A stretch of 64,000 nt of DNA from Bacteroidota bacterium (GTDB lineage: Bacteria; Bacteroidota; Bacteroidia; 2-12-FULL-35-15), in NCBI GenBank assembly GCA_040387415.1, contig JAZKDU010000015.1, forward strand, positions 56,166 to 120,165, read 5' to 3'. Numbering within the stretch: the stretch's first letter is position 1; each line of letters opens with the position of its first letter. The notes under the pieces were generated by a model. It worked only from the letters and a program-made list of their open reading frames with translations. It did not search any database and had not been told where the DNA came from. This document shows, in pieces, positions 615 to 42,798 of this stretch. The translations under genes and the position numbers were made by a program.

Positions 615-1036
615 TTTATGAGTTTTTTTATTTCAGCTTCTATTTTGTTAAATCCATCATCTCCTTTTGCAATATACGTGCAAATCCCTTCTTTTGCTAT
701 TGATAGAGCCAGTTCAATGCTTTGCTGCGAACTATGAAGAATAAATTCAATAGAGGGATATTCTTTTTTTAATCTTTTTAAAACATCGAATCCTTCTTCT
801 GCATCTTCATAACGATCATTCAAATAATGGTCCATAATGAGTAAATCTGGAATATCACCATTTTGAATTTTTATTTCTGCAACTTCAGCAACAGGCATAC
901 ATTCAACTTCAGCTTTTTCGCCAAATTTTGATTGTATCAAATGCTCTAATTGCCGTAAATAAATAGCATTATCTTCAACCAGAAAAATTAAAAATTTCTT
1001 TGTTTTAGAACTGTTTTTATTTCCGAATAAATTCAT
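611..1036 (-). CDS. Receiver-domain protein (single-domain response regulator)
   Basis: Receiver-like translation: LVEDN, phospho-acceptor D in LLIMDHYL, K in YIAK. The 4-bp ATGA overlap with the downstream RR suggests translational coupling. Confidence 0.75.
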   Translation of the reverse strand: MNLFGNKNSSKTKKFLIFLVEDNAIYLRQLEHLIQSKFGEKAEVECMPVAEVAEIKIQNGDIPDLLIMDHYLNDRYEDAEEGFDVLKRLKKEYPSIEFILHSSQQSIELALSIAKEGICTYIAKGDDGFNKIEAEIKKLIK

Positions 1037-1047
1037 GTTTTCCTGTT

Positions 1048-3702: not shown

Positions 3703-3767
3703 AAACTTTAAATAAGCTTGTTGAATTTTGTTTTTGAATTTTTTAAATTTTTATAATCTTATATTTG

Positions 3768-6524: not shown

Positions 6525-6527
6525 TTT

Positions 6528-6581
6528 TTATGGTCCTAATGGCAGTGCAATAAGAAAACATATGGTTGCTGTTTTTTTCAT
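6528..6581 (-). other. Possible 17-aa upstream ORF (MKKTATICFLIALPLGP) ending 3 nt before the kinase ATG
   Basis: Read directly on the minus strand: ATG at 6579-6581, TAA at 6528-6530, then aaa and the kinase ATG at 6522-6524. Hydrophobic peptide. Confidence 0.2.
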
Positions 6582-6761
6582 TTAACGCAATATAGCTTTC
6601 TAAAATACCGCTTTTTTTTATAGATAAACTGGGTATTTCGATACTCTATTTTAAATCTCAGATAACAGGTACTTAAAACCGGTCACAATTTGCAAATAAG
6701 CAGATGGTGAGCTATTGATGTCTATGAAAAAAACATTCCATTTTAAGGAAATAGTCTATTT

Positions 6762-7451
6762 TTAAAGAAGGTTAAGCTTTTGAAAAAATGTACTTTTGTA
6801 TTTTCGGCTTAGTGGCAGCGACTTCCCTTCTATTATAATTATTTCATCTTCAATCTCAACTATTTTGTCCAATCGGATAATATAAGAATTGTGAATCCTT
6901 GTAAAGTCATAAATTTGCAATTTATTTTCAATTGCTTTCATTGTTGATAGAATAGTGAATTTTTCTTTTGTAGTATAAATATTTACATAGTCTGCCATAG
7001 CTTCTATGTATAGTATATCTTTAGCACTTATTCTGATCAGACGAGAATTTTTTTTTATATACAAATCATCCGTGTTTCGTTGGCTTATCGAAATGCTTTC
7101 TTTTATTTCTTTGGCTTTTTGGGCAGCTTTTAAGAACCGGTTAAAATCAACAGGTTTGAGAATAAAATCGGTAACATTATAATCGTATGTTTCAGCGGCA
7201 TACTCTTTATTCCCGGTAATAAAAATTACCTGCGGTGTTTTGTAATTTTTAACAAAGTCAAGGCCGCTCATTCCGGGCATTTCAATGTCAAGGAAAGCAA
7301 CATCAATATTTTTATGTTTTTCCAATAAATTAACGGCCTCCGTTCCAGAGGTTGCAGTGCCCACGAGGGTTAGAAAATCTATTCGTTCGATACAATTTTC
7401 GACCAGCTTTAAAGCCAATTCATCATCATCGACAATAATACAATTCAGCAT
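6762..7451 (-). CDS. LytTR-family response regulator (REC + LytTR DNA-binding domain)
   Basis: Receiver motifs IIVDDDE and AFLDIEMPGMSG. C-terminal LytTR-like domain (ISAKDILYIEA...IHNSYIIRL). Confidence 0.9.
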   Translation of the reverse strand: MLNCIIVDDDELALKLVENCIERIDFLTLVGTATSGTEAVNLLEKHKNIDVAFLDIEMPGMSGLDFVKNYKTPQVIFITGNKEYAAETYDYNVTDFILKPVDFNRFLKAAQKAKEIKESISISQRNTDDLYIKKNSRLIRISAKDILYIEAMADYVNIYTTKEKFTILSTMKAIENKLQIYDFTRIHNSYIIRLDKIVEIEDEIIIIEGKSLPLSRKYKSTFFQKLNLL

Positions 7452-28538: not shown

Positions 28539-29186
28539 TTATCCAATATGTGCCTTTTCAAAACGATACACTTTCGGTAATTCATTATTATTCCTAAAGT
28601 TTACATCCAGATCCTTAATAAACCCATTTTGTATACTATACACCCAACCGTGAACCTCCAATTTTTGTCCATTTCTCCAGGCATTCTGAACAATACTGGT
28701 TTTGCACAAATCATACACTTGCTCCATCACATTTAATTCCACAAATCTTCTTGCGCGTAATTTCTCATCTTCAATACTTTCTAATTCCTGATGATAGGTT
28801 TTATAAACATCTTTAATATGACGAAGCCAGTTATCAATCAAACCATATTGTTTGTTGCCCATAGCAGCCATAACACCGCCACATTCATAATGTCCGCATA
28901 CAATAATGTGTTTTACTTTAAGTACTTCTACTGCATATGAAAGAACGCTTAACATATTCATATCGCTGTGAACTACCATATTTGCAATGTTGCGGTGAAC
29001 AAATATATCTCCTGGCTGGGTTCCGGTAATCTGGTTAGCAGGCACACGGCTATCGGAACAGCCAATCCATAAATACTCCGGTGTTTGGCCCTCGGCTAAT
29101 CTTTTAAAATATTCGGGGTCCAGTTCCAATTGTTCTTTTACCCATGCTTTATTATTTTCTAATAATACCTTATATGATTTTTCCAT
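28539..29186 (-). CDS. Beta-class carbonic anhydrase
   Basis: CSDSRVP ... HxxCGG (HYECGGV) zinc-ligand motifs. 215 aa. Confidence 0.9.
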   Translation of the reverse strand: MEKSYKVLLENNKAWVKEQLELDPEYFKRLAEGQTPEYLWIGCSDSRVPANQITGTQPGDIFVHRNIANMVVHSDMNMLSVLSYAVEVLKVKHIIVCGHYECGGVMAAMGNKQYGLIDNWLRHIKDVYKTYHQELESIEDEKLRARRFVELNVMEQVYDLCKTSIVQNAWRNGQKLEVHGWVYSIQNGFIKDLDVNFRNNNELPKVYRFEKAHIG

Positions 29187-29200
29187 TTTTTTTTAGTTTT

Positions 29201-30781
29201 TTAATGGCCTGATACCCCTTTAAATGCAGGAATCTCTTTCAGTTCCATGTTTATATTTTTTAATATTGCGGTGTTATTTTTAAAATCATGTATGATCTCA
29301 ATAACATCCATATCTATATTCCTTGATTTACTTCCATCTATTAATACGTTTGAACCTTCTGGTAATTGTTCAAGTGTGAGCACAATGCTTCCCTTATTAA
29401 GAAAGGATACATCCTCAGCCAACCGGATAACTATTTTATCCTTTCCTTCTTTTTCTTCTTCAATATGGAAGAAATAAGCAAGCTTATAGCTGTTACGCAG
29501 AATAATAAATGCCGAAACAATCATTCCTGCAGCAATACCTTTTAACAGATCCGAAAACTGAATAGCAACAACCGTAACAATAAAAGGTAAAAACTGCTCC
29601 CAGCCTAATTTATACATGGTGGTGAATAATGAAACTTTTGCAAGTTTATATCCTACAAGCAATAATACAGCTGCAAGACAAGCCAAAGGAATTTTGTTTA
29701 GCACCGATGCCAGGCCAACTACACTCACCAATAAAAGCAAGCCATGAAAAATAGACGCGAGCTTTGTTTTACCCCCAGAGTTAACATTGGCTGAACTACG
29801 CACAATTACTGCAGTTAATGGTAATCCGCCAATTAAACCGGACACCATGTTTCCTAAACCCTGTGCTTTTAATTCCCGATTGGTTGGAGTGCTTCTTTTA
29901 AAAGGATCCAGCTTATCAGCTGCTTCAATACTAAGAAGTGATTCCAAACTGGCAATAACAGCAATAGTTAAAGCAACTACATATACGTGATAGTTACCAA
30001 ATGCAGTAAAATCAGGTAATGTGAATTGATTGATAAAACCCGTTGCTGAATCAGCCACAGGTAAACGTACCAGCTTCTCCCCTGTTAATAAAAATTCAGG
30101 GATATACGCTCTATACATTTCATTCATCAAAACGCCCAATATTACTACTATCAAAGCACCCGGAACAAACTTGAAGAAGGCATATTTCTTCAATACCGGG
30201 CGGTCCCAGAGAATTAAAACCAGCAGCGAAATAACACTTACAATAATGGCACCGGGATGCAGAAAGTTAACAGAATTAAAAATTTCCGAAATGGTGTTTT
30301 GTCCATCCACCTGAAAAAAGTCAAAATCTCCTTCGTTGTCTTTATCATACCCTAATGCGTGCGGTATTTGCTTCAGAATTAAAATAATACCAATTGCAGC
30401 AAGCATCCCTTTAATTACGCTGGAAGGGAAATAATAGGCAATAATCCCTGCTTTTAAATACCCTAGTGCAATTTGAATTAATCCTGCTAAAACTACTGCC
30501 AGCAAAAATGTTTCGTAACTGCCTAACTGTGTAATAGCGTTTAGTACAATAACCGTTAAACCTGCTGCAGGCCCGCTAACGCTCAGTGCAGATCCGCTTG
30601 TAAAAGCAACTACAGTACCGCCAACAATTCCGGCTATAATTCCGGAAAACAAGGGTGCTCCGGAAGCCAATGCAATCCCAAGACATAAAGGTAATGCAAC
30701 TAAAAAAACTACTAGTCCGGCAGGCAAATCATTTTTAATATAAGCGAAGCTTAATTCTTTGGTTGGTTTGTTTAAAAGCAT
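29201..30781 (-). CDS. SulP-family anion transporter with C-terminal STAS domain (bicarbonate/sulfate permease type)
   Basis: 526 aa, polytopic membrane protein with STAS-like C-terminus. Stop is 15 bp upstream of the carbonic anhydrase start. Confidence 0.9.
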   Translation of the reverse strand: MLLNKPTKELSFAYIKNDLPAGLVVFLVALPLCLGIALASGAPLFSGIIAGIVGGTVVAFTSGSALSVSGPAAGLTVIVLNAITQLGSYETFLLAVVLAGLIQIALGYLKAGIIAYYFPSSVIKGMLAAIGIILILKQIPHALGYDKDNEGDFDFFQVDGQNTISEIFNSVNFLHPGAIIVSVISLLVLILWDRPVLKKYAFFKFVPGALIVVILGVLMNEMYRAYIPEFLLTGEKLVRLPVADSATGFINQFTLPDFTAFGNYHVYVVALTIAVIASLESLLSIEAADKLDPFKRSTPTNRELKAQGLGNMVSGLIGGLPLTAVIVRSSANVNSGGKTKLASIFHGLLLLVSVVGLASVLNKIPLACLAAVLLLVGYKLAKVSLFTTMYKLGWEQFLPFIVTVVAIQFSDLLKGIAAGMIVSAFIILRNSYKLAYFFHIEEEKEGKDKIVIRLAEDVSFLNKGSIVLTLEQLPEGSNVLIDGSKSRNIDMDVIEIIHDFKNNTAILKNINMELKEIPAFKGVSGH

Positions 30782-30891
30782 AGTAATATCAGAAAATAAT
30801 TAATGAAAATAAACTTCCGGGTAAGCGGACGTTAATACGATAATGAATGTTTTTTTAGTGGATTACTACAAAGCGTAGCCTTGCAGTTAAA

Positions 30892-31293
30892 TTAAATTAC
30901 AGTGTACTCTGGGGGCGAATATACTGTTTGACTATAATCTGATGTGGAAAAAATAAAATCACCCGATCGGATATAATTTAAGTGGTTGAAGGAGGCTAAC
31001 CTGCAGTGATCAAGATTAAATAAATTTTCTGAGAACTCTTTTTTTTCCTTTTCATCCGATTTTTCTGATTCAGAATCTTCCTCACCTTCAAAGTCTGATA
31101 AGTCTGTAACAATTCCATTAGTTATTTTTTTTGTGAAATAACTAATGGTTTCATTGCTGAAGACAAATAAGAATAAAATAAGCAAGCAATATGTTACAAC
31201 TTTTTTCAAAATCAGTTTGTTCGGTTTTTGCAAAGGTGCAAAAAAAAAGTGCCATTTTTTAGAAAAAATCAACAGTTTAGCATTTTTTAACAA
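30892..31293 (-). CDS. Hypothetical small protein with hydrophobic segment and acidic tract, upstream of SulP
   Basis: ORF only; acidic DLSDFEGEEDSESEKSDEKEKKE stretch. May be non-coding. Confidence 0.3.
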   Translation of the reverse strand: MLKNAKLLIFSKKWHFFFAPLQKPNKLILKKVVTYCLLILFLFVFSNETISYFTKKITNGIVTDLSDFEGEEDSESEKSDEKEKKEFSENLFNLDHCRLASFNHLNYIRSGDFIFSTSDYSQTVYSPPEYTVI

Positions 31294-31421
31294 ATAGTGA
31301 AGGTGTTAAAACCTGGGTAAAAACAGCTCTAAAAAGCACAGAATAAATTTCCTAAAGTAAACGTAATATTACCTTAATGTAAAAGTCTCATTACTAATAT
31401 ACTTTAGCCGTTCATTCAACA

Positions 31422-32111
31422 ATGTTAATGAACAACCCGGCTTTTAAAATATTAATTATTGATACGGATACCGAACTAGTTTCGTCTATGGGTGCAGCTT
31501 TGCAGATGGAGGGCCTTTGTGTAATTACATCTTCAAAATCACGCGAAGCTATTCAGCTTGCAATTGCGCAGCAACCTCATCTTATTTTAGTTGAGCTGCT
31601 AATGCCGGAACTGGATGGCATAGACATCTGTATAGAGCTAAGGCACCAACCTGATTTGTTACACACCCTCATTGTATTTTATACCGAACGCAATGAGGAT
31701 TATTCTCAAATAGCTGCTTTTAATGCCGGAGCTGATGACTACATTATTAAACCGGTTAAAATGAGAGTACTGAAAAGCAGGTTAAAGGCAATGTTGAAAC
31801 GCCACCCTATAAATCAGGATAAAGTCATTAAAAATGATGGTATTGGCCTAGTCATTGACCGCGAGCGATACCTGGTTTTTAAGGATGGGGAAGAAATTGT
31901 GTTGCCGAGAAAAGAATTTGAATTGCTTGCTTTACTTTCAGCTTCGCCAAGGAAAGTTTTTACCCGAAAGGAAATCTCACAGTTAATCTGGGGATACGAA
32001 TTTGTGGCGAAAAACAGAACCATTGATGTTCATATTCTTAAAATCCGTGAAAAACTGGGTGATAAATACGTAAAGACAATAAAAGGCGTTGGATATTGCC
32101 TGGAAGGTTAA
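31422..32111 (+). CDS. OmpR/PhoB-family response regulator with Glu in place of the phospho-acceptor Asp (atypical, orphan)
   Basis: REC + winged-helix domains. Acceptor motif reads LILVELLMPELDG, with a gag codon at 31593-31595 where LILLDxxMP is canonical. The N-terminal acidic pocket is also altered (IDTDTE). Conserved T (FYT) and K (IIKP) are present. Confidence 0.85.
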   Translation: MLMNNPAFKILIIDTDTELVSSMGAALQMEGLCVITSSKSREAIQLAIAQQPHLILVELLMPELDGIDICIELRHQPDLLHTLIVFYTERNEDYSQIAAFNAGADDYIIKPVKMRVLKSRLKAMLKRHPINQDKVIKNDGIGLVIDRERYLVFKDGEEIVLPRKEFELLALLSASPRKVFTRKEISQLIWGYEFVAKNRTIDVHILKIREKLGDKYVKTIKGVGYCLEG

Positions 32112-32161
32112 ACCTTTATAATTCTGAATTTATTATAAAGCTGTTTTTAATTTTATTGATT

Positions 32162-32279
32162 TTTCTTGTTACTGTTTCAAACTTCTTTGACTAAACTCGG
32201 ACTGGCAGCGCGCGGTCATATTGAGCTTGTAGAAATATTGAGGCTGAATTTTGTAGAATTTTTTTTTAAAATTTAAACC
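32162..32279 (-). repeat. Copy A of a duplicated ~118-bp intergenic element carrying a 16-codon ORF (MTARCQSEFSQRSLKQ, minus strand)
   Basis: About 80% identical to 34332-34451 by direct alignment. Conserved ATG and stop at the same positions in both copies. Confidence 0.7.
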
Positions 32280-32283
32280 GATT

Positions 32284-32754
32284 CTATAAATTATCGTAAT
32301 TTTTTTCGCTGGTAATTTTTCCGTTTTCATCCCACATGGTCCAGTTTCCTTTTTTTTCGCCCATTGCATAAATCATTTCGTAACGTTTAGTTCCATTGTT
32401 ATCCCAAACCAGCCAGGTTCCATTTTTTTTACCGAAAATATAAAACGCTTCTGCAATTTTTTTCCCTGCTTCATCCCAGCGAAGCCATTGTCCGTTTTTT
32501 TCATTATCAGTAAAAGTGCCAGTTTCCATTACATTTCCATTCTCATAGTAATAAGTGATCATTCCATTCACTTTACCATTTGCAACAGCAAATACTGATT
32601 TTTTACTTCCCGCTTTAAAATAAGAAGTATAATAACCTGAATACAAGCCCCCGTTATCAGTGTAATAAATACCTTCTTTTAAAATTATATTTTGAGCGTT
32701 TACCCCGCAAGCCAATGTGAGACTTACAATAAGTAATAAAATTATTTTTTTCAT
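32284..32754 (-). CDS. MORN-variant repeat lipoprotein ('YwqK-family antitoxin'-type repeats)
   Basis: Signal peptide plus lipobox-like LACG. Repeats of YYENG..E.G.F.DG.K.G.W. Confidence 0.75.
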   Translation of the reverse strand: MKKIILLLIVSLTLACGVNAQNIILKEGIYYTDNGGLYSGYYTSYFKAGSKKSVFAVANGKVNGMITYYYENGNVMETGTFTDNEKNGQWLRWDEAGKKIAEAFYIFGKKNGTWLVWDNNGTKRYEMIYAMGEKKGNWTMWDENGKITSEKNYDNL

Positions 32755-32833
32755 AGCTTCAGTGTTTTACAATGATGATTGTATTACGCAAAGAAATAAA
32801 AAAAGGTTTTAATACAGAAGTTAAACGCCCATA

Positions 32834-32877
32834 AAAACACCTGAATGTTAAGTTAATGTAAAGTCAACAGGTGTTTT
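32834..32877 (-). terminator. Terminator hairpin downstream of the small CarbopepD gene
   Basis: aacacctg-(24-nt loop)-caggtgtt, with a T-run on the minus strand. Confidence 0.45.
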
Positions 32878-32958
32878 AACTGAATTGACTCCATAAAATA
32901 AAAAAAGCCTCCAGCAATTCAATGCAGCAAGGCTTTGGAGCGATGTATTATTTTGTAT

Positions 32959-33282
32959 TTAGTTCGACTCTAATTCAACTAGTATTTCACCAAAATTATG
33001 AGAGTCGATATTAACTTTAACGTCATTATAAGAAACTGAAGTAATCAAGGCTTCGGTTTTTCCCGTTTGGATGCTTGCCATAAAGTTTCCATTTAAGTCG
33101 GAATAAATAATTTTGTCATTAATGCTGATCTTAGCTCCAGCTATTTCTTCCCCGCTTATTTTATCGATCACTTTCCCTGTAATCAGTCTTTTATTCTCCT
33201 TCTCCTTGTTATTACCATTGCTGCCTGCAATAGCGACACTGCCTATGAAAATTAAAAAAAAAGTGGTAATATATATTCTCAT
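32959..33282 (-). CDS. Small secreted carboxypeptidase-regulatory-like (CarbopepD_reg) domain protein
   Basis: Signal peptide and GKVIDKISGEEIAGAKISIND...SDLNGNF, a CarbopepD_reg-like beta-sandwich. 107 aa. Confidence 0.6.
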   Translation of the reverse strand: MRIYITTFFLIFIGSVAIAGSNGNNKEKENKRLITGKVIDKISGEEIAGAKISINDKIIYSDLNGNFMASIQTGKTEALITSVSYNDVKVNIDSHNFGEILVELESN

Positions 33283-33368
33283 TTATGGTGGATTTATACT
33301 TCAAAAGTATCATGTAAATCCATTGGGGAAGTTATTCGAAATTTAACAGTATATGAAGATTACATTAA

Positions 33369-33770
33369 CTATGTTAAATTAATATTATTAGCTGCGGTGA
33401 GAATGTTTCGTCTCTGAAATAAAAAAACAAACTCATTATCGCTATAGGTTTTATTCTGTAGCAGGCTTTTTACAACAAGGTGTTCGGAAGTTTGCAGGTT
33501 TAAATAGTCTTCCAATTTAATCAAACCTGGAAGTACAGCTTTTTTAAAATATTTCATTTTAATTTGCTCACCAAACAATTCCTGTTCATTTTCAGGATCG
33601 GATGTAGTCACCACAATCAGATCAGGCGCAGTATCTTTTGCCTTTGACAAGGCCTCCTGCAAACTGGAAGATTTTAATATCTGAAAACCATTTCTGGTCA
33701 GATTTACCGCAACATGTTCGATTTCATCAATTTGGTCGAACACTAACAAAATACGATTCATACTTTTCAT
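33369..33770 (-). CDS. Degenerate (pseudo-)receiver domain protein
   Basis: Receiver-like fold, but the acceptor position reads PDLIVVTTSDPE (Thr where Asp is expected). Confidence 0.55.
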   Translation of the reverse strand: MKSMNRILLVFDQIDEIEHVAVNLTRNGFQILKSSSLQEALSKAKDTAPDLIVVTTSDPENEQELFGEQIKMKYFKKAVLPGLIKLEDYLNLQTSEHLVVKSLLQNKTYSDNEFVFLFQRRNILTAANNINLT

Positions 33771-33786
33771 TTCAAGAATATAAAAA

Positions 33787-34176
33787 TTAAACTACTTTAT
33801 CCATGTCAATAATTACATGACTTATTATTTCAAAAAGATTTTCAAACTTAATTGGCTTGGATATAAATTGATCGGCACCGGATAAAAATGCGTACAACAC
33901 CTTATAATCATCATTAACAGCGGTAAGGAAAAGAAAAGGTATGGCATTTAACCTGGGAATTTTCCTGATAGTTTTACACATTTCAATTCCATCCATTTCG
34001 GGCATAAGAACATCCGAAATAATTATTTGCGGATACTCAATCTGCGCTTGTTTAATTCCTTCTAATCCATTATTTGCTGTTATTACAATGAAGCCTTTTT
34101 TTCGAAAATTGTATGAAAGAAATTCAAGAATGTCCGGCTCATCGTCAACAATCAAAATTTTTATTGGTGTTTTCAT
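33787..34176 (-). CDS. Single-domain response regulator (canonical receiver)
   Basis: LIVDDEPD, IISDVLMPEMDG, LTA, KP motifs all present. Confidence 0.85.
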   Translation of the reverse strand: MKTPIKILIVDDEPDILEFLSYNFRKKGFIVITANNGLEGIKQAQIEYPQIIISDVLMPEMDGIEMCKTIRKIPRLNAIPFLFLTAVNDDYKVLYAFLSGADQFISKPIKFENLFEIISHVIIDMDKVV

Positions 34177-34268
34177 AATTTATCAATAGAAAAGTATATA
34201 CCAAAAACCCTGTATATAGTCTGTGATTGTTAAGAAATAGTTAACTTAAGGTTATGTTTATAAAATAA

Positions 34269-34300
34269 AACACCCGCTCCTAATAGACACGGGTGCTTTA
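34269..34300 (-). terminator. Terminator hairpin (mainly minus-strand) downstream of copy B of the small-ORF element
   Basis: cacccg-ctcctaatagaca-cgggtg, followed by a T-run on the minus strand. Confidence 0.4.
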
Positions 34301-34331
34301 TTACATTAAGAAACTGTTTAAATATTGCTAT

Positions 34332-34451
34332 TTTTTTGTTATCGCTTCCCACTTCTTCGACTAAGCTCAGACTCACAGCGTGCGGTCATATGAGCGTGTT
34401 GAAATATGTGGGCTGAATTTATACCTGTAGAATTTTTTTATAAATTTAAAC
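34332..34451 (-). repeat. Copy B of the duplicated ~118-bp element with 16-codon ORF (MTARCESELSRRSGKR)
   Basis: Aligned by eye to 32162-32279. Both copies lie immediately 3' of minus-strand genes. Confidence 0.7.
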
Positions 34452-34471
34452 AGACTGTCATTTAAAAATGT

Positions 34472-36124
34472 TTATTTAGCTACTACAAATTTTACTGTCT
34501 TGCTAAAATTGTCTGAACTAATAGTAGTAAAATAAATACCAGATGTTAAAGCACTGGTATTAACTTTAACTGAATTCATGCCTGTATTCATTTCTCCTGC
34601 AAATACATTTACAAGAGCCTTTCCAGTAATATCATAAATGATTATCATAACTTTTTCTGCAGTTTTTAAACTAACATTCATTGTAGCATCATTGGTTACC
34701 GGATTTGGATATAAACCAATTGTTGCGTTATCATTTCCCTTTTCGTTTATACCCGAAGTTACACTCCCCCCAAGTTTAGGATGACTAAATGAAGCGCCCG
34801 AAGCGGCTAATGATGTAGATTGCAGACGATAATCAGGTGTGGACGATAAAGAAGAAGGAAAACCATTCACCCATGCAATTTCCGCTGTCGTTTTTGTTGA
34901 ATCGTTTACATCAGCTGAAAAAATTGTGTTGTACACAGCAAGAGTAATATTTGCATCTAAAATGATTGCCTGATCAATATCAGAAGCGATTAAATTATTT
35001 GCAAACACTGCTGAATCATTCATAGTAAAATTATCAACTGTGCCGGCATCTTTTAAATATACTCCTTTTTGCCAGGAAGCAGCAACAGAATTAAATATGG
35101 AGATGGAAGAATTTCTGCGGATATAAAAAGCTCTTTCAAATTTTTCTCCGGCAGGTAATGTTATAGTACCATTGCGTAATGGCCCCACATTGGTAATGTT
35201 TGAAAAAACCGCTTGTGTTCTTGGCAAATTAGCTGTTCCTGTTGCATCGTTATCCGATTCAAAACCATTTGAATCACCTGCAGCATCTGATAAATCAGGA
35301 TCTCTTACGATTAAACCAAACTGTACACGGCCTCTGTAGCCGAAATCTGTATCAAAATCATCATCTGTTCCGCGGAAAGCTATTAAATATTTAGCATCAA
35401 CTGTTCCTCCAAACCACTCGAAACTGTCGTCTCCGGAAAATGATATTTGTATATGGTCTACTTTTGTTTTTGAACCTACCGATCCGAACGTTAAACCGTT
35501 AATTTCCTTATTCGGTTGAAACGCAATTCCAGGAAATTCAATGCGTACATAGGAAAACACTCCTGAACTGTCCTGATCATTAGACCCTCCATATTCACTA
35601 TTTGTGGAAACAACGATACCTTCAATATTCGCAACACCACCCGGTTGATTGTGTGTGGCACTCCCTAGTATTACAACGCCTCCCCAATCACCTTCAGCTC
35701 TTGAACCAACAGCTTCGCTGGAAGTAAACACAATCGGGTTACTGGAAGTTCCTTGTGCTATTATTTTAGCACCTTTTGAAATAAGCAATGTACCTTGTGT
35801 AGCCTTATCTCCACGGATAACAACACCTGGTTGAATGGTCAGCACTGCGTTATTTTTTACATAAATTTTATTTTCTAACAATACAATTGTGCCTGTTGTC
35901 CAGGTTGTATTTGCTGTAATATCAGCATTAACTGTGGTTGTGGGAGCTCCATAAGCTGCATTTTCAGGATCAAAGTTTGACCAGCCACTCGTCCAGTCCG
36001 ATGCTGTAGTATTATCAGTTACTGGAAACGCTCCTTTATAAGAAGTTGTTGTCCAGAAAGTTGTTTGTGCGTTTAGTGAACCGCCTATCAAGCTTGCCAA
36101 TGCCAGTTTGTAAATTTTCTTCAT
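34472..36124 (-). CDS. T9SS C-terminal-sorting-domain secreted protein with parallel beta-helix-like body
   Basis: Signal peptide, Gly/Ser/Thr-rich repeats typical of a beta-helix. C-terminal LYPNPV...GIYFTTI Por CTD. Confidence 0.8.
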   Translation of the reverse strand: MKKIYKLALASLIGGSLNAQTTFWTTTSYKGAFPVTDNTTASDWTSGWSNFDPENAAYGAPTTTVNADITANTTWTTGTIVLLENKIYVKNNAVLTIQPGVVIRGDKATQGTLLISKGAKIIAQGTSSNPIVFTSSEAVGSRAEGDWGGVVILGSATHNQPGGVANIEGIVVSTNSEYGGSNDQDSSGVFSYVRIEFPGIAFQPNKEINGLTFGSVGSKTKVDHIQISFSGDDSFEWFGGTVDAKYLIAFRGTDDDFDTDFGYRGRVQFGLIVRDPDLSDAAGDSNGFESDNDATGTANLPRTQAVFSNITNVGPLRNGTITLPAGEKFERAFYIRRNSSISIFNSVAASWQKGVYLKDAGTVDNFTMNDSAVFANNLIASDIDQAIILDANITLAVYNTIFSADVNDSTKTTAEIAWVNGFPSSLSSTPDYRLQSTSLAASGASFSHPKLGGSVTSGINEKGNDNATIGLYPNPVTNDATMNVSLKTAEKVMIIIYDITGKALVNVFAGEMNTGMNSVKVNTSALTSGIYFTTISSDNFSKTVKFVVAK

Positions 36125-36287: not shown

Positions 36288-39161
36288 TTAAAATTTATAA
36301 GACACGCCAAGAGATACCGTTTGTCCGAAATTAGTATTCGTCATTGTATTATCCTTCTGTTCATCGTATTGTCCATCTTTATCAATATCCTGATAAAAAA
36401 TCAAATTTTGCGCCAGTGCATCTCTTACATTCAACTTTATTTCGAAACGTTCCTTAATTTTTTTCACTATTTGTAAGTCAATTACATTACGTTGTTTTTC
36501 CCAATAATCCGGCTCACTTAAACTTCCTACAATGTAAATTCGCTTTCCGACCAAATTATATGAAACGCTGAAACTAAATCCATTGCTGGGATGTATATAT
36601 TGAATCCCCGCATTTACAATTACAGGAGACTGTCCCTGCAACGGGCGCTCATCAGCAGTAGCACCATTAACTCCGCTTACATCCACCTTTGATTTGATGT
36701 ATGAAAAATTAGTATACAAGGTCGTAGCCGATAAAAATGCGCTTGAATCATTTTTGAAAATTGAACTTAATTTAAAGCGATATTCAAGTTCAATACCTAC
36801 GTTTGTTGCCTTGGGTACATTTACATAATATAATTCCCTTAAAACATCCGGGCGATTAACCTGTTCAATCGCATTCGTAAATTTTTTATAGAATCCAGAA
36901 ACTGAAATTAATTGTCCGGCACCCGGATAATATTCAAATCGTAAATCATAATTATCAATTAAAGCACGCTGTAATTCCGGATTTCCGGACACAGCAAAAT
37001 CAGTAACAAAATCAAAAAATATAAATGGTGCCAACTCCCTGAATTCGGGACGTGACACAGTACGGTAATAGCTGGCTCTCAGATTAATTTTTTCAGTTAA
37101 AGAATATACGAGGTTAACTGAAGGCAAAAGGTCATTAACAGTAGTGTCGGAATCAACAGGAGTATTGCTTCCGTCTTTAATTGTATGTAACTGTTGATTA
37201 TAGGACTCTATACGCACACCATAAATAGCACGTAATCGTTCAAAAAATTTGGAATCTAACATCAGAAAACCAGCATTTAAAAATGATGATGCAGTATAAC
37301 TATCACTTGTTTTAGTGGCCTCATCGAGTTTAAAACCGCCATTATATGGACCTGGCTGATCAAGCAGTCCCATATTGCTGCTCGCAAAAATTTCTTCTTC
37401 GGGCAATAGTAACAATTGACTGTCAAATTTTATTGCACTGCCTTTTCTGTATTTTGAAAACCCTAAGTTACGTGCAGAAAAACTTCTTTTTCTGTATTGA
37501 TGAAATCCGCCAATTTTGAGATCTGTTTTTGTAGCTTTTATTTGCAGGGGACGATTTGCTTCGTATTTAAAACTATAAATATCTTCATTCGTTTCTGAGA
37601 AGAACATATTGCCGGCAGCATTAGGAATTGTACCTTCATTTTGAACAATGGCGGCATATTCGGTACTTGGATCATTTTCTTCACTTGCTGTCTTCTGATA
37701 TACAACCCTCCTCATATTGGGCACACTTCGTTTTATGTCGCTAATTCCACCAGTCCATTTAATCTTTATTTTAGATGCCGGTAATAAATGATCTCCGCTT
37801 AACTGCCCTGTGTAAAGGATATTCTGAGTAAACCAACGAAGGGAAGATTTTTCCCATTGCTTTTCCGGCTGATCAAATTCACGGGCTCCATTACGAATAG
37901 TTACTTTATCATCACTATTCACACTCAATAAATTTTTAAAATTTATCTGATTGTTATCATTCAATTTGTAGGCCAGATTCCACATAGCACTTGCCAGCAC
38001 AGCCTGAGTGTACTGCTGATCATTGAGCTCCATGCGTTTTACAACACCAGTGGATTGCTCTTCGTACTCCCGTCTTATTGTTTCATTGTAATTATAATTG
38101 TTCTGATAAGTAACAGCGAAGATGCTCCCCGCTTCACGTTTAAAAATTTTTCCAACATTTGCAATACTGTATTGTAGGTTAAGAGCGGGCAGGGCTGTTA
38201 CTGTTTTAATTGCCCATGAAGGAGTTGTCTGTTTTGCTAATTCTCCTTTTTGTTCAACTGTTAAATGGGAAAACTCAAGTGTAGTGGGCATGGTAGATGG
38301 CAGAGCTCTTGTACCATCGTCAACCCCAAGCCAATCATACTTTCCGCCCTCATAGGTTTTAAATTCTTTGAATGTGGTGATGGCATTATAGGAGCTTGCA
38401 ATTGAAACTATTTGTTCATTTTTTTCAGGTATACTCTTCGTATTGATTTGAATAATGCCACCCGCAAACTCACCCGGCATATCAGGGGTTGCCGTTTTTG
38501 TGATTACTAAATTATCAAGCATATTGGCAGGAAAAATATCGAACGCGAATGCTTTCCGGTCAGACTCAGAGCTAGGCAAAGGTGCACCGTTAATATATGC
38601 CGCATTGTACCTGTCATTCAAGCCTCTTATAATTGCAAATTTATTATCCTGAATGCTTGCCCCACTGATACGTTTAAGCACATCACTTGTATTGCGATCA
38701 GGAGTTCTTTTTATTGATTCGGAAGAAATACCATCAGAAACGGATGCATTATTTTTTTGCATCACCAGCATAGCATTGGTTGTTTCTTTATTCATTGTTG
38801 CAGTTATTTCAACAACCCCCAGATCAGTTGAAGCTGTTGACAATGTTAGCGAAACAATAGCCGGCTCACCTGACTTTACAATTACGTCCGTTAGCAGTTT
38901 GGTATTATAAGATATCAATTTGCAAACAAGTGTGTATTTTCCTGGTGCAACATTATTAATTGTAAAAGCACCATCCAGATCCGTATTTCCTCCAATAAGC
39001 GTACCTTCAATTAATACAACTGCCCCAGGCAGTGTTTCACCCGTTTTTTCATCTATCACTTTTCCTTTTACCGAATTCTGAGCGAACATGATATTTACTA
39101 ATATCACAAGTACCCCTATACTAAACAACTTAAATTTCATTTTCATTTTATTTACCTGCAA
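36288..39161 (-). CDS. TonB-dependent outer-membrane receptor with N-terminal CarbopepD_reg domain
   Basis: Signal peptide. VKGKVIDEKTGETLPGAVV (CarbopepD_reg). Plug and 22-strand barrel with C-terminal aromatic residue (…YKF). The true start may be the MKMKFKLF methionine. Confidence 0.9.
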   Translation of the reverse strand: MQVNKMKMKFKLFSIGVLVILVNIMFAQNSVKGKVIDEKTGETLPGAVVLIEGTLIGGNTDLDGAFTINNVAPGKYTLVCKLISYNTKLLTDVIVKSGEPAIVSLTLSTASTDLGVVEITATMNKETTNAMLVMQKNNASVSDGISSESIKRTPDRNTSDVLKRISGASIQDNKFAIIRGLNDRYNAAYINGAPLPSSESDRKAFAFDIFPANMLDNLVITKTATPDMPGEFAGGIIQINTKSIPEKNEQIVSIASSYNAITTFKEFKTYEGGKYDWLGVDDGTRALPSTMPTTLEFSHLTVEQKGELAKQTTPSWAIKTVTALPALNLQYSIANVGKIFKREAGSIFAVTYQNNYNYNETIRREYEEQSTGVVKRMELNDQQYTQAVLASAMWNLAYKLNDNNQINFKNLLSVNSDDKVTIRNGAREFDQPEKQWEKSSLRWFTQNILYTGQLSGDHLLPASKIKIKWTGGISDIKRSVPNMRRVVYQKTASEENDPSTEYAAIVQNEGTIPNAAGNMFFSETNEDIYSFKYEANRPLQIKATKTDLKIGGFHQYRKRSFSARNLGFSKYRKGSAIKFDSQLLLLPEEEIFASSNMGLLDQPGPYNGGFKLDEATKTSDSYTASSFLNAGFLMLDSKFFERLRAIYGVRIESYNQQLHTIKDGSNTPVDSDTTVNDLLPSVNLVYSLTEKINLRASYYRTVSRPEFRELAPFIFFDFVTDFAVSGNPELQRALIDNYDLRFEYYPGAGQLISVSGFYKKFTNAIEQVNRPDVLRELYYVNVPKATNVGIELEYRFKLSSIFKNDSSAFLSATTLYTNFSYIKSKVDVSGVNGATADERPLQGQSPVIVNAGIQYIHPSNGFSFSVSYNLVGKRIYIVGSLSEPDYWEKQRNVIDLQIVKKIKERFEIKLNVRDALAQNLIFYQDIDKDGQYDEQKDNTMTNTNFGQTVSLGVSYKF

Positions 39162-39551
39162 AGTAATTGCTGAAAGGTAAATACAGCGTTAATGAAAAAT
39201 TAAGCTAACGTTAAGTAATTTACCGTTGTACTTTAATTTATCAATGTTAATTTAATGTAAATTTTATAACTAAACCAGTCGATCCAATATTGATTTTCTT
39301 CCCCTTTTTTTGCAATTTAATCTACAACACAAAAAGTGTTTTCATTAATCCAGAGAAATGCAATCTTGACTAAATGCCTATTTGCCCATCTATTATTGAT
39401 TAAACAAGATAATCCAGCTCATACAGTTGCTCTAAAGCGTTCCTCAATTGTTAAGTTCACACAATATTAACATTGGCATAACATTCGTAATTACGACTGG
39501 AAATACTTTTGCATAACCAATTAACCTTTTTTTAACCTTAAAGTAACCAAA

Positions 39552-40814
39552 ATGAACTTAAAAGGAAATGTTTTATTAACATGTGTATCTTACCTGATGC
39601 TATTTACAACAGGTATTGCACAAGAAATTAAAAATGGCAACGAGAAACCAGCAGCCAAGGACTCTTTGTTGGCGGAAACAGCTATAGCAACGACTAAAAT
39701 TCCAGTCAAAAATTGGTATGAACAAATATCAATCAGAGGATATGCCCAGGTAAGATATAACAGGTTACTTGAAACGAATGAACTGTTAAAATGTGAGCAA
39801 TGTGACAAATCATGGGGAAATGGGGGCTTTTTTATCAGGCGTATGCGAATAATATTTTTTGGTAATGTGCACGAGAGGGTATATATATACATTCAGCCTG
39901 ATTTTGCTTCATCCCCTTCCACCGGATCGAATCATTTTGGACAATTACGTGATGCCTATTTTGATTTATCATTGGATAAAAAGAAAGAATTTCGTTTCCG
40001 TATAGGCCAAAGTAAAATTCCATTTGGGTTTGAAAACATGCAATCCAGTCAAAACCGTTTGCCATTAGATAGGAATGACGCTTTAAACAGCGCAGTTTCA
40101 AATGAACGGGATTTAGGGGTGTTCTTTTACTGGGCACCTGAAAAAACAAGAAAGCTTTTTAGTTCACTGGTAAATGATGGACTAAAAGGAAGCGGAGATT
40201 ACGGGGTTTTAGGAATTGGTGCATTTAATGGGCAAACTGCCAACAAAACTGATGCTAATAAAGATCCTCATGTAGTAGCTAGATTATCTTATCCCCTTGA
40301 AATTAAAGGACAAATAATTGAAGCCGGTATTCAGGGATATACTGGCCAATATGTGGTAGAAAGCAGATCTACGGGTGTAAAAGGGCCCAACAAAGATTTT
40401 ACATTTATGGACGAAAGAATGGCAGCAAGCTTTGTATTATACCCGAAACCCTTTGGTATCCAGGCAGAATACAATGTCGGCCGTGGTCCGGAATTTAATT
40501 CCGAAACCGACTCAATAGAAACTCAAAATTTAAAAGGAGGATATATAACAGCCTCCTATTTTATTAAATTAAAAAAACAAATTATTATCCCATTTGTTAG
40601 GGTGCAGTATTATGATGGTGCGAAAAAGCATGAATTGGATGCACGCAGTTATACTGTAAATGAATATGAATATGGCATTGAGTGGCAGCCGATCAAAAAT
40701 TTTGAATTTGTTGCAATGTATACTATGTCAGAGCGAAGATTCGAAGATTATAAACTACAGGATAATAAACAAAAAGGTAGTTTATTGCGATTACAAGCCC
40801 AGTTTAATTTTTAA
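39552..40814 (+). CDS. Porin, phosphate-selective porin O/P-like
   Basis: Signal peptide and a beta-barrel pattern ending in F. Located next to a DUF47 + PiT pair. Confidence 0.65.
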   Translation: MNLKGNVLLTCVSYLMLFTTGIAQEIKNGNEKPAAKDSLLAETAIATTKIPVKNWYEQISIRGYAQVRYNRLLETNELLKCEQCDKSWGNGGFFIRRMRIIFFGNVHERVYIYIQPDFASSPSTGSNHFGQLRDAYFDLSLDKKKEFRFRIGQSKIPFGFENMQSSQNRLPLDRNDALNSAVSNERDLGVFFYWAPEKTRKLFSSLVNDGLKGSGDYGVLGIGAFNGQTANKTDANKDPHVVARLSYPLEIKGQIIEAGIQGYTGQYVVESRSTGVKGPNKDFTFMDERMAASFVLYPKPFGIQAEYNVGRGPEFNSETDSIETQNLKGGYITASYFIKLKKQIIIPFVRVQYYDGAKKHELDARSYTVNEYEYGIEWQPIKNFEFVAMYTMSERRFEDYKLQDNKQKGSLLRLQAQFNF

Positions 40815-40983
40815 TCTATCAAAGCCAGTTTATACCTAAAATAATGTCAAAAAGAAATAAAAAAACAAAACTTAACAATTAATTAACATTAAAACAACGA
40901 AAGGGTAACTCGCTTTTATTACTAAATGGTTTAAACCAAGCTACTTTTGAGCAAAAATTAAAAACACTTCAAAAAATTAAAAA

Positions 40984-41628
40984 ATGGCTTTCAACATCTT
41001 CAAATTTTTCCAACCAAAAGATAAAATATTCTTCGTGCTTTTTGAAAAAGCAACTGCCAATTTAATTGACATATCAAAAGCACTGGTAGAAATGCTGAAT
41101 ACTCCTGCAGGTCCGAGAAGAAAGGAATTAATACGTGAGATTGAACGTCTTGAGCATGTTGGAGACAATATTACTCATGAAACTTTTCATCAGTTAAGTG
41201 CAAATTTTATTACCCCTTTTGACAGGGAAGATATTCATTCCTTAATTTCTGCAATTGATGATATTGCAGATTATATACACGGTTCTTCCAAGCGAATTGA
41301 GCTTTATAAAGTAGAAAACGTTACTGTTCCTATGATTAAAATAGCCGAACTAATTGAAAAATGTTCGGACGAACTGCATAATGCGGTATGTGAGCTAAAG
41401 AACATGAAAAATATTAATAAAATTAAAGAAGCCTGCGTTCGTATTAACAGTATTGAGAACCATGCAGATGATATTTTTGATATGGCAATTGCGAAACTGT
41501 TTGAAGAAGAAAAAAATGCGGTGGAAATTATAAAAATGAAAGAAGTGCTTCAAGCCCTGGAAACAGCTACTGATATGTGCGAAGACGCTGCAAATGTGCT
41601 TGAATCCATTTTAGTTAAAAACGCATAA
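40984..41628 (+). CDS. DUF47 (PhoU-like, TIGR00153/YkaA-type) PiT-associated protein
   Basis: 214-aa helical protein directly upstream of a PiT-family transporter, which is the conserved pairing. Confidence 0.8.
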   Translation: MAFNIFKFFQPKDKIFFVLFEKATANLIDISKALVEMLNTPAGPRRKELIREIERLEHVGDNITHETFHQLSANFITPFDREDIHSLISAIDDIADYIHGSSKRIELYKVENVTVPMIKIAELIEKCSDELHNAVCELKNMKNINKIKEACVRINSIENHADDIFDMAIAKLFEEEKNAVEIIKMKEVLQALETATDMCEDAANVLESILVKNA

Positions 41629-41739: not shown

Positions 41740-42798
41740 ATGACTATATTAATCATCATTATTATACTTGCAATTATATTTGATCTTATCAATGGTTTTC
41801 ATGATGCGGCAAATTCAATTGCAACAATTGTTTCTACAAAAGTACTAAGCCCTTTGCAGGCCGTTATCTGGGCTGCATTTTTTAATGTGATTGCCTTCTG
41901 GATCTTCGACTTAAAAGTTGCTGATACTGTTGCTAAAATTGTACATACGGATGCCATTAATTTCGCGGTAGTATGTGCAGGATTAATCGCTGCAATTGCA
42001 TGGAATTTATTAACATGGTGGTTTGGTATTCCTTCCAGCTCTTCACACACATTGCTTGGCGGCTTTTCTGGTGCCGCAGTTGCCCATGCGGGTTTCGGTG
42101 TTGTTAATCAGGAAAAAATACTAATTACCTTTTCATTTATTTTCCTTGCTCCTATTCTTGGGATGATCATATCGTCTATTATTACCATGATCATTGTAAA
42201 TATCAGTAAAAAAGCACATCCTGCAAAAGCAACGCGCTGGTTTAAACGGTTGCAGCTGGTTTCATCAGGTTTGTTCAGTATAGGCCACGGAGGTAACGAT
42301 GCACAAAAAGTAATGGGTATCATGGCCGCGGCTTTAATGGTATATATGGCACAACTAAAAGCACAAGGATTACCTATACCTGAATGGGCAACCATTGAGC
42401 AAACGATGGGGAAAAACGGTAAACTGTCTATAAGCCACATTCCCGACTGGATACCTATTGCATGTTATACTGCAATAGGATGCGGCACCATGATGGGCGG
42501 CTGGAAAATTATAAAAACAATGGGTACCAAAATCACTAAAGTGACTCCACTAGAAGGAGTAAGTGCTGAAACAGCGGGAGCATTGACGTTATTTATGACA
42601 GAAAAAATGGGTATCCCTGTGAGCACCACGCATACTATAACAGGCTCTATCATTGGTGTTGGAATCACCAAACGTATATCAGCCGTAAAATGGGGTGTAA
42701 CCATTAATTTACTTTGGGCATGGGTATTAACCATTCCTATCAGCGGCTTACTTGGGGCCATTCTTTTTTGGTTGCTTACTTTCTTTGGCGTTAAATAA
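41740..42798 (+). CDS. Inorganic phosphate transporter, PiT family
   Basis: Duplicated PHO4 motif GxNDxxN (GFHDAANS and GHGGNDAQK). 352 aa. Confidence 0.9.
   Translation: MTILIIIIILAIIFDLINGFHDAANSIATIVSTKVLSPLQAVIWAAFFNVIAFWIFDLKVADTVAKIVHTDAINFAVVCAGLIAAIAWNLLTWWFGIPSSSSHTLLGGFSGAAVAHAGFGVVNQEKILITFSFIFLAPILGMIISSIITMIIVNISKKAHPAKATRWFKRLQLVSSGLFSIGHGGNDAQKVMGIMAAALMVYMAQLKAQGLPIPEWATIEQTMGKNGKLSISHIPDWIPIACYTAIGCGTMMGGWKIIKTMGTKITKVTPLEGVSAETAGALTLFMTEKMGIPVSTTHTITGSIIGVGITKRISAVKWGVTINLLWAWVLTIPISGLLGAILFWLLTFFGVK

Follow-up and report, generated by a model that had tools for sequence, protein, structure and literature searches.

The 64,000-nucleotide stretch of DNA analysed here (the window; positions 56,166 to 120,165 of contig JAZKDU010000015.1, assembly GCA_040387415.1, from a Bacteroidota bacterium) encodes, at 31422–32111, an OmpR/PhoB-family response regulator that carries Glu in place of the phospho-acceptor Asp. 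Comparison with its relatives identifies the gene as a paralogue of Bacteroidota PhoB. Judged by the family alignment, the lesion common to all members is the loss of the second residue of the acidic pair (DD2), and the Glu is not the defining event. We consider it moderately probable that the protein works independently of phosphorylation, as a PhoB paralogue whose expression level determines its output, possibly together with PhoB-derived partners. The literature that we searched contained no described PhoB pseudo-receiver paralogue in Bacteroidota, and on this basis the family is undescribed as such.

The open reading frame (ORF) of the regulator (Table 1) probably begins at the ATG at 31428, giving a product of 227 amino acids (aa), because its homologues are of this length and begin with MxNxxFKIL. 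Both of its Pfam matches exceed the gathering scores, and together they give the receiver plus winged-helix architecture of the OmpR/PhoB family. A phmmer search of all PDB chains returned MtrA, PrrA, RegX3 and RpaA as the best matches (E-values 1e-31 to 3e-27). The query segment LILVE58LLMPELDG aligned on LVLLD56LMLPGMNG of MtrA, with the same placement on PrrA, RegX3 and RpaA, and in every printed alignment Glu58 fell on the acceptor motif and D14-T15-D16 on the acidic loop. Relative to MtrA, the first acidic residue (DD1) is kept as Asp14, and DD2, the metal ligand position, is Thr15. An AlphaFold model built with 20 family sequences as input (predicted local distance difference test score, pLDDT, 82.5) consists of a (βα)5 domain and a winged helix, in which β3 (residues 54–58) ends at Glu58, Asp14 and Thr15 directly follow β1, Thr88 ends β4 and Lys110 lies just after β5. 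The best structural matches of the model are the full-length OmpR/PhoB regulators RpaA, PrrA, MtrA and KdpE.

The initial annotation of this DNA, made from the letters alone, had read a Glu codon at the acceptor position, an altered N-terminal acidic pair, conserved Thr and Lys residues and a full winged-helix output domain. Alignment to the solved OmpR/PhoB structures, the model and the Pfam matches bear out these readings. Among the residues expected of a canonical receiver, the acceptor Asp and the acidic pair are altered (Glu58, Thr15), and the Thr and Lys are present. An aspartate-less receiver is defined as a PF00072 match without the acceptor Asp, and a pseudo-receiver as one that has lost any residue of the catalytic quintet (PMC4395418, PMC12632262); with its PF00072 match, Glu58 and Thr15, the regulator falls under both definitions. 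Its relatives with an acceptor Asp count as pseudo-receivers because they have lost DD2.

A search of 5.8 billion proteins returned, among the matches listed, at least 120 relatives of ~227 aa with 67–100% identity, and every one bearing an organism name came from a Bacteroidota metagenome-assembled genome. The acceptor in these matches was Asp in 89 and Glu in 32, and DD2 was T, S, A, P, I or N, never Asp. The nearest relatives of the query (87% and 84% identical) carry Asp, and several at ~80% carry Glu. A family-alignment scan of GTDB, with one genome per species, yielded 80 loci (loci are designated here by L numbers), which were pooled with the earlier protein matches. The pooled sequences split into two clades, a core atypical clade (n = 124) from uncultured Bacteroidota and Bacteroidia, and a canonical sister clade (n = 70). 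The sample is biased towards the closest relatives, and the atypical clade is known only from metagenome-assembled genomes.

The full D-D-D-T-K set is invariant in the canonical clade, as are the switch Tyr and the K-P pair (70 of 70 at each position). In the atypical clade, DD2 is Asp in 0/124 sequences (T 86, S 12, A 12, P 5, N 3, I 3, E 2, M 1), and the acceptor is D in 91 and E in 33, and nothing else. DD1 is D in 117 (A 5, S 1, T 1), the conserved T is T in 106 and S in 18, and the switch Tyr and K-P are found in all 124. The position of D16 is D, N or E throughout. Five deeper-branching sequences bridge the two clades, one of them (L019) with an intact DD-D set and the others with DSD/E, DPD/D or DKD/E.

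Parsimony on a neighbour-joining tree, for which the canonical clade served as the root, gave ~15 changes between Asp and Glu, all within the atypical clade. The acceptor codon is GAT in 9 loci, GAA in 6 and GAG in 2, both GAG records (L001, L002) being the window's own locus, and an identical protein (P0001, 100%) is encoded in two assemblies. Because Glu occurs in 33 of the 124 members, through both Glu codons, and the same sequence is present in two assemblies, a sequencing error or a strain-specific mutation is ruled out. Since the acceptor is only ever Asp or Glu, switching repeatedly, the position appears to take only a carboxylate, and either one. Mutual information between this position and others revealed lineage-linked positions only, and no convincing compensatory site. 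The initial annotation had regarded the Glu as a partial phosphomimetic, and had proposed its conservation in orthologues as a check. Glu does recur, but 73% of the orthologues keep Asp; given this majority and the repeated interchange, the Glu looks like an equivalent carboxylate and not like an activating phosphomimetic.

Members of the canonical clade come from Flavobacterium, Aquimarina, Winogradskyella, Alistipes, Mariniphaga, Capnocytophaga and others. In 7/7 loci for which the gene order was listed, the canonical regulator is directly followed by a HisKA/HATPase kinase of 340–350 aa, whose best NCBIfam matches are PnpS and PhoR. The canonical gene is often preceded, divergently, by genes for a TonB-dependent receptor and a β-helix protein, and the canonical cluster of L003 continues with a PF04101 glycosyltransferase, with an OprP porin nearby. 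The PhoBR cluster of Flavobacterium johnsoniae contains genes for a glycosyltransferase (Fjoh_0541), OprP (0542), PhoR (0543), PhoB (0544), a TonB-dependent transporter (TBDT, 0545) and an FII lipoprotein (0546), of which the TBDT, FII, glycosyltransferase and PhoB are induced by phosphate depletion, without significant change in OprP and PhoR (Lidbury et al. 2021, PMC8115612). The gene content of L003 matches this cluster. On the grounds of synteny and gene content, we treat the canonical clade as Bacteroidota PhoB, and the query family as its paralogue.

The canonical PhoB-PhoR system (Fjoh_0544/0543) is among the closest known systems, its regulator being ~50% identical to that of the window. 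The recognition helix, RTIDVHI-K-REK, is the same in both families (RTIDVHILKIREK in the regulator, from comparison of the clade consensus sequences), the α4-β5-α5 face is very similar, and the canonical neighbourhood likewise contains a TonB receptor, an FII β-helix protein, OprP and phosphate transporters. Unlike the atypical family, canonical PhoB has the invariant D-D-D-T-K set, a conserved α1 helix and, in the loci listed, a kinase gene directly downstream. The regulator scores 161 bits with its best NCBIfam model, NF053854 (Bacteroides-type PhoB; cutoff 270), and 145 bits with the PhoB model TIGR02154 (cutoff 296). A true PhoB (equivalog) was rejected, because these scores lie below both cutoffs and there is no adjacent PhoR. 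In agreement with the initial annotation, none of the loci examined, the window included, has a kinase gene next to the atypical gene; the only kinases of the window are two hybrid kinases (1048–6524), ~25 kb from the regulator. The description of the regulator as an orphan holds within the window, but the gene is a PhoB paralogue in a phosphate-starvation cluster, and canonical PhoB-PhoR lies 7–9 kb from the atypical gene in L003, L014, L019 and L086.

The two clades differ in which structural elements are constrained. Overall divergence is comparable, with a mean pairwise identity of 74% in the atypical and 70% in the canonical clade. Mean column entropy (in bits, atypical versus canonical) is higher in the atypical clade at α1 (2.12 versus 0.86), the DD loop (0.93 versus 0.00), β3 (0.69 versus 0.35) and the β3-α3 loop (0.44 versus 0.16), and lower at α3 (0.32 versus 0.78), α4 (0.04 versus 0.30), β5 (0.18 versus 0.35) and the DNA-binding domain (0.58 versus 0.84). 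Constraint in the atypical clade is thus relaxed at α1 and the active-site loops, and tighter at the α4-β5-α5 face and the DNA-binding domain. Helix α1 is the principal kinase-specificity surface of receivers, as seen in kinase–regulator co-evolution and in the HK853-RR468 complex. The α4-β5-α5 face forms the dimer interface of OmpR/PhoB regulators (PMC12632262). The pattern is what would be expected if kinase docking and phosphotransfer had been abandoned, with dimerisation and DNA binding still selected.

A 37-bp element lies in the 128-bp divergent region common to the regulator and the operon for a small protein, a SulP transporter and a carbonic anhydrase. It is made up of three 11-bp-phased repeats, reads CCTAAAGTAAAgTTAATcTTAcCTTAATGTAAAAG as a whole (with the middle repeat read as TAATcTTAc), and stands at a fixed 72–80 nt upstream of the regulator ATG, in flanking DNA that is unalignable across the 13 loci in which it is near-invariant. 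It is followed by TACTTTAG, a putative −7 box that resembles the one of Bacteroidota promoters (TAnnTTTG). The window contains a single match to the 37-bp element (0.00 expected), and no second copy with a position weight matrix score ≥12 was found in the window or in 85 loci, weak partial matches aside. The phased-repeat layout is typical of OmpR/PhoB-type sites that replace an upstream promoter box, and the element is a putative binding site for a PhoB-type regulator. Because the recognition helix is the same in both clades, either PhoB or the paralogue itself could bind it.

Further repeats of this kind were searched for in the window. The motif TGTWAM-N5-TGTWAM has 3 matches versus 0.43 expected, all intergenic in the cluster (32846–32862 (+), 39245–39261, 40872–40888 (−)). 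Its enrichment upstream of canonical phoB (300 bp, 67 loci) is ~19-fold, with a strict match in 7 loci only. GTWAA-N17-GTWAA is mildly enriched (5 versus 1.7 expected). Matches in the window to TTAATGTAAA with one mismatch (29 versus 24.7 expected) and to TTAA-N4-A phased pairs (2 versus 2.3 expected) are not above chance. Runs of GTTAA/TGTWAA units at 11- or 22-bp spacing (39188–39261, 40872–40888, 32846–32862 and 34229–34256) precede the TonB receptor/OprP genes, the PhoU_div-PHO4 genes, the MORN gene and the stand-alone receiver gene, and similar phased TGTTA units fill the interval between the TonB receptor gene and phoB in canonical loci such as L033, L038 and L066. These runs are candidate Bacteroidota Pho boxes.

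The explanation that we favour is as follows. After duplication of PhoB, the lineage would have lost the DD2 Asp and the constraint on α1, and with both gone, neither PhoR nor small phospho-donors would phosphorylate the regulator any more. An active site lacking DD2 would be unable to hold the catalytic metal, Glu at the acceptor would keep the window member from forming an acyl phosphate, and an α1 helix freed of constraint would track no kinase. The loss of DD2 and the α1 entropy lend indirect support to the phosphorylation independence proposed in the initial annotation. The acceptor carboxylate, whether Asp or Glu, may act as a structural contact that holds the receiver in a dimer-competent, DNA-binding state; such a role is suggested by the strict restriction to Asp or Glu together with the invariant Thr/Ser, Tyr, Lys-Pro and α4-β5-α5 face, and would match that of the unphosphorylated Asp in GlnR and RamR and of the Glu-bearing site in ChxR. 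The regulator would then be constitutively active, and with the recognition helix of PhoB it should bind Pho-box-like 11-bp direct repeats. Three such repeats appear to occupy the usual position of the −33 box in its own promoter. Its output would be set by the amount of protein, with PhoB~P, the paralogue itself or both driving transcription. Targets would include the shared divergent promoter (small protein, SulP, carbonic anhydrase), perhaps other Pho boxes in the cluster, and in some relatives carbonic anhydrase, OprP and pst.

Several points weigh against this explanation. The majority of the members (73%) still carry Asp, and the residue at the D16 position (D/N/E) might replace the missing metal ligand and allow residual phosphorylation of the Asp-type members. 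The 37-bp element was found only at the regulator's own promoter within each 10–20 kb locus scanned, and since the looser half-site counts in the window are not above chance, a regulon beyond the shared divergent promoter is suggestive only. The figure of 15 switches is approximate, because it comes from a neighbour-joining tree and a similarity-biased sample. Finally, all that is said here on phosphorylation and dimerisation we infer from sequence.

Input might instead reach the regulator in trans, through partner proteins that themselves sense phosphorylation, to which we assign a low but appreciable likelihood. One option is a heterodimer with phosphorylated canonical PhoB through the α4-β5-α5 face, which is very similar between the two clades. 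The other is control by the small stand-alone receiver encoded at 33787–34176, with the aspartate-less receiver at 33369–33770 as a third component. Both had been named as candidate partners in the initial annotation, the first as a CheY and the second as a pseudo-receiver. The first is indeed a complete receiver, but not a generic CheY: it is 59% identical to the receiver of the L003 canonical PhoB, with an identical α1 helix (DDEPDILEFLSYN) and the full quintet, whereas its identity to the atypical regulator is only 34%. This small protein appears to be a copy of PhoB reduced to the receiver, which could still dock PhoR, and could compete for or relay PhoR phosphoryl groups. The label of the second is reasonable. 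The protein has no Pfam match and only 12 relatives in a large protein database; its N-terminal half aligns to receivers, with a weak match to the N-terminal part of an NCBIfam PhoB model. Its AlphaFold model (pLDDT 72.5) has (βα)5-like topology, its Foldseek matches are almost all receiver domains, although weak (E-value about 1e-3), and its orthologues in L003 and L086 retain the PhoB-like β5-α5 motif IKPVRPKLL.

In the window and in L003, L007, L012/L086, L088 and L089 the receiver pair is syntenic with the regulator, partly so in L013, and it makes a reasonable candidate for a partner of the regulator. Against such a role, no such pair lies within 10 kb of the regulator in L004, L005, L087 and others. 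In addition, inspection of the alignments showed that α5 of the stand-alone receiver lacks the basic residues of canonical PhoB and the atypical regulator, which form dimer salt bridges. A precedent for control by a partner is Rem, which is inhibited by binding of MirA (PMC12632262). In sister genomes, a gene for a lysine-rich protein of 126–133 aa is inserted between the two small receivers (L088 9529–9930, L089 8025–8405); it is absent from the window.

A bolder version of this scheme, which we regard as unlikely, is that the PhoB receiver has radiated into a four-member module comprising canonical PhoB, the receiver-only copy (33787–34176), the aspartate-less copy (33369–33770) and the non-phosphorylatable full-length DNA-binding copy. 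The receiver-only protein, phosphorylated by PhoR and acting with or against the aspartate-less copy, would bind the pseudo-receiver and gate a second branch of the phosphate-starvation response. If so, signal input and transcriptional output would be split between polypeptides, the second branch, which would include the SulP/carbonic-anhydrase operon, would be separately tunable, and the Asp/Glu carboxylate would be a structural latch, not a phosphorylation site.

It seems improbable that canonical signalling persists, with the Asp-type members phosphorylated by a distant kinase via metal binding at D14 and D16, and the Glu-type members being derived, locked-on phosphomimetics. The Asp majority (91/124), the retained Thr, Lys and Tyr, the D/N/E residue at D16 in all members and the presence of canonical PhoR 7–9 kb away in some relatives are compatible with such signalling, and Glu partly activates some regulators (PMC4395418). 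However, DD2 is the direct metal ligand, and true receivers have an acidic residue there in 100% of cases (PMC12632262); in the family it is never Asp, and some members lack DD1 as well (A, S or T). The high variability of α1 would be unexpected if a cognate kinase had been maintained, and the repeated Asp/Glu reversals between close relatives argue that both states are functionally equivalent.

Lower still is the probability that activity is switched by a ligand, by redox state or by Ser/Thr phosphorylation (for example at the Thr/Ser of DD2), and not by expression level. Control by Ser/Thr phosphorylation would be compatible with the Thr or Ser at DD2 in 98/124 members (79%) and with a gene for a PP2C/SpoIIE-type phosphatase in the cluster of three loci (L003 10883–11758, L086 12031–12894, L089 13510–14364); precedents for the other modes are JadR1 and RedZ (ligand) and RitR (redox) (PMC12632262). 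However, DD2 is A, P, N, I, E or M in 26 members, the window has no PP2C gene between the regulator and the receiver pair, and an inspection without depth identified no conserved Cys or obvious pocket. A decaying, non-functional duplicate or an assembly or sequencing artefact, as the loss of catalytic residues might be read, is highly implausible, because the ORF is intact in >120 clusters at 67–87% identity, conservation of the α4-β5-α5 dimer face and the DNA-binding domain exceeds that in canonical PhoB, the promoter element is likewise conserved, and the same sequence is present in two assemblies.

The regulator is located among phosphate-starvation genes, and its divergent pairing with the SulP/carbonic-anhydrase operon, or with carbonic anhydrase alone, is the most conserved feature of the locus across relatives. 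The full operon is found likewise in L003, L005, L007, L010, L011 and L087, and carbonic anhydrase alone (no SulP) in L008, L012/L086 and L019. The small protein encoded between SulP and the regulator, kept in these same six SulP-containing loci, has one apparent hydrophobic segment and an acidic stretch, and has no Pfam or NCBIfam match. On the divergent side of L086, which is of the Glu type, lie genes for carbonic anhydrase, OprP, two PstS, PstC, PstA, PstB and PhoU, and the far side ends in canonical PhoB-PhoR, 9 kb from the regulator. Glu-type regulators thus co-exist with canonical PhoBR, and the idea that the Glu-type members have lost phoBR was rejected on this counterexample. The carbonic anhydrase gene of L086 heads a co-directional run with OprP and pstSCAB-phoU (L086 1–9887), and in L003 (1–9042) genes for a DabA/DabB-type inorganic-carbon pump and a second carbonic anhydrase join the divergent side. 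Lidbury et al. (PMC8115612) make no mention of a link between SulP or carbonic anhydrase and the Flavobacterium Pho regulon.

Downstream of the regulator, the genes for the MORN-repeat and CarboxypepD_reg-like proteins are syntenic in L005–L010, L012 and L086–L089. Beyond the two small receivers, the TonB receptor and β-helix pair match the TBDT and FII pair of the Flavobacterium phoBR cluster that is induced by phosphate starvation (PMC8115612), and the OprP, PhoU_div and PHO4/PitA genes run divergently from the TonB receptor gene. The phoBR genes are not next to the TonB receptor gene in the window, or in the loci of its subclade (L088, L089).

Two other features of the window were noted. 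The hybrid kinases are housed in a phosphorelay cluster (240–7451, minus strand), and a comparable cluster lies <7 kb from the regulator in the sister genome L088. A ~125-nt repeat is present in two copies that are 84% identical (32161–32285 and 34331–34460), each immediately 3′ of a minus-strand gene, that of the MORN protein and that of the β-helix protein with a type IX secretion system (T9SS) tail, respectively. It has no Rfam match and no folding signal above shuffles, and may be a 3′ untranslated region element, a miniature mobile element or a duplication scar. An Rfam scan of 30700–34600 found nothing credible.

Table 1. Features of the regulator, its promoter region and the surrounding genes, in window coordinates.
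Feature	Position	Strand	Basis or remark
OmpR/PhoB-family regulator, a PhoB paralogue, with pseudo-receiver	31422..32111	+	open ORF, 229 aa; Pfam REC + Trans_reg_C
Receiver (REC) domain, residues 10-121	31449..31784	+	Pfam PF00072 Response_reg, E 2e-19
Acidic-pocket loop D14-T15-D16 (gat-acg-gat)	31461..31469	+	aligned to MtrA D-D-D
Glu58 codon gag, phospho-acceptor position, end of β3	31593..31595	+	alignment, AlphaFold, codon read directly
Thr88 codon acc, conserved T of receiver quintet	31683..31685	+	codon read directly, AlphaFold
Lys110 codon aaa, conserved K, followed by Pro111; Tyr107 is the aromatic switch residue	31749..31751	+	
Winged-helix DNA-binding domain, residues 156-227	31887..32102	+	Pfam PF00486 Trans_reg_C, E 4e-22
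37-bp element, three 11-bp-phased repeats TAAAGTAAA / TAATATTAC / TAATGTAAA	31351..31387	+	near-invariant in 13 loci
-7-like box TACTTTAG	31400..31407	+	conserved alignment columns, after a constant, unconserved 15 nt from the last repeat
Aspartate-less, partly degenerate receiver-like protein, 133 aa	33369..33770	-	acceptor position Thr/Asn
Stand-alone receiver, 129 aa, complete DD-D-T-K set	33787..34176	-	Pfam REC, E 3e-25
Pho-box-like phased repeats	39188..39261	+	intergenic, TonB receptor to OprP; GTTAA-N17-GTTAA 39188-39214, TGTTAAT-N4-TGTAAA 39245-39261
β-carbonic anhydrase	28539-29186	-	Pfam; divergent operon 28539..31293
SulP anion transporter	29201-30781	-	Pfam; divergent operon
Small conserved protein, ~102-133 aa	30892-31293	-	divergent operon; TTG start uncertain
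MORN-repeat protein	32284-32754	-	Pfam; downstream neighbour of regulator
CarboxypepD_reg-like protein	32959-33282	-	Pfam; downstream neighbour of regulator
β-helix protein with T9SS secretion tail, FII counterpart	34472-36124	-	Pfam of identical locus L001, NCBIfam, synteny
TonB-dependent receptor	36288-39161	-	Pfam of identical locus L001, NCBIfam, synteny
OprP-type porin	39552-40814	+	Pfam
PhoU_div	40984-41628	+	Pfam
PHO4/PitA-type phosphate transporter	41740-42798	+	Pfam
Two single receivers	240-614, 611-1036	-	phosphorelay cluster
CHASE3-PAS hybrid kinase with REC + Hpt	1048-3702	-	
GAF-PAS hybrid kinase	3768-6524	-	
LytTR response regulator	6762-7451	-	

The general significance of the regulator is moderate, since it adds one more example to a known class, in which Glu for Asp is one ordinary symptom of the pseudo-receiver state. 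The family nevertheless amounts to a natural experiment, being a recent and well-sampled PhoB paralogue with its canonical sister present for comparison. It could reveal the role of a retained carboxylate once phosphorylation is gone, and the way in which a phosphate-starvation circuit is rewired when a copy of the output regulator that is blind to phosphorylation is added to it. The means by which pseudo-receiver regulators are turned on and off are a recognised open question (PMC12632262). The gene is annotated automatically as 'PhoP/PhoB', a label that would mislead metabolic or regulatory inference from Bacteroidota metagenome-assembled genomes.

The class to which the regulator belongs is that of Glu-type aspartate-less receivers such as ChxR. 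In aspartate-less receivers the acceptor Asp is replaced most often by Glu, at 26% (PMC4395418; most often also in PMC12632262), and only 29% of these receivers keep an acidic residue at the second position of the acidic pair (PMC4395418). Atypical regulators of the OmpR type include ChxR, HP1043, GlnR, RitR and CmrT (PMC4395418, PMC12632262). ChxR of Chlamydia trachomatis resembles the regulator in its OmpR/PhoB architecture, natural acceptor Glu, altered acidic pocket and lack of a cognate kinase, and both are proposed to act as phosphorylation-independent dimers on direct repeats. ChxR is still active after replacement of its Glu by Asp or Ala (PMC4395418), a tolerance that parallels the natural Asp/Glu interchange in the regulator family. 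However, ChxR is no specific sequence relative, being absent from the 60 best PDB sequence matches of the regulator. In addition, only ChxR and one other aspartate-less receiver are known to be missing part of the pocket secondary structure (PMC4395418), whereas the fold of the regulator is predicted to be canonical, with Thr, Lys and Tyr kept. Unlike ChxR, the regulator family is a recent PhoB paralogue, found alongside canonical PhoBR in some genomes.

For the Asp-type majority of the family, GlnR of actinomycetes and RamR of Streptomyces would be the best functional analogy. In these homodimeric DNA binders the acceptor Asp serves dimerisation and not phosphorylation, so that the carboxylate is selected without phosphotransfer (PMC12632262). 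They differ in belonging to other lineages, with regulons for nitrogen and development, and the corresponding role of the carboxylate in the regulator family is a putative one. CmrT of Clostridioides difficile is a pseudo-receiver regulator of the OmpR type encoded near a canonical regulator, CmrR, as in the regulator family. In one model proposed for CmrR and CmrT, the canonical system simply sets the expression of a constitutively active pseudo-receiver protein (PMC12632262). CmrT shares an operon with a kinase and its partner regulator, whereas the regulator described here has its own promoter, and the canonical system is 7–9 kb away or not in view.

Helicobacter pylori HP1043 (HsrA), according to published accounts, is an orphan OmpR-type regulator with a degenerate receiver that works independently of phosphorylation, as we propose for the regulator. 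It differs, in the same accounts, in being an essential global regulator, in having a highly degenerate receiver without part of the pocket structure, and in its unrelated lineage and context. Relative to these known systems, what is new in the present family is its origin as a PhoB paralogue inside a phosphate-starvation cluster, the natural toggling between Asp and Glu after loss of DD2, and the co-occurrence with two further derivatives of the PhoB receiver.

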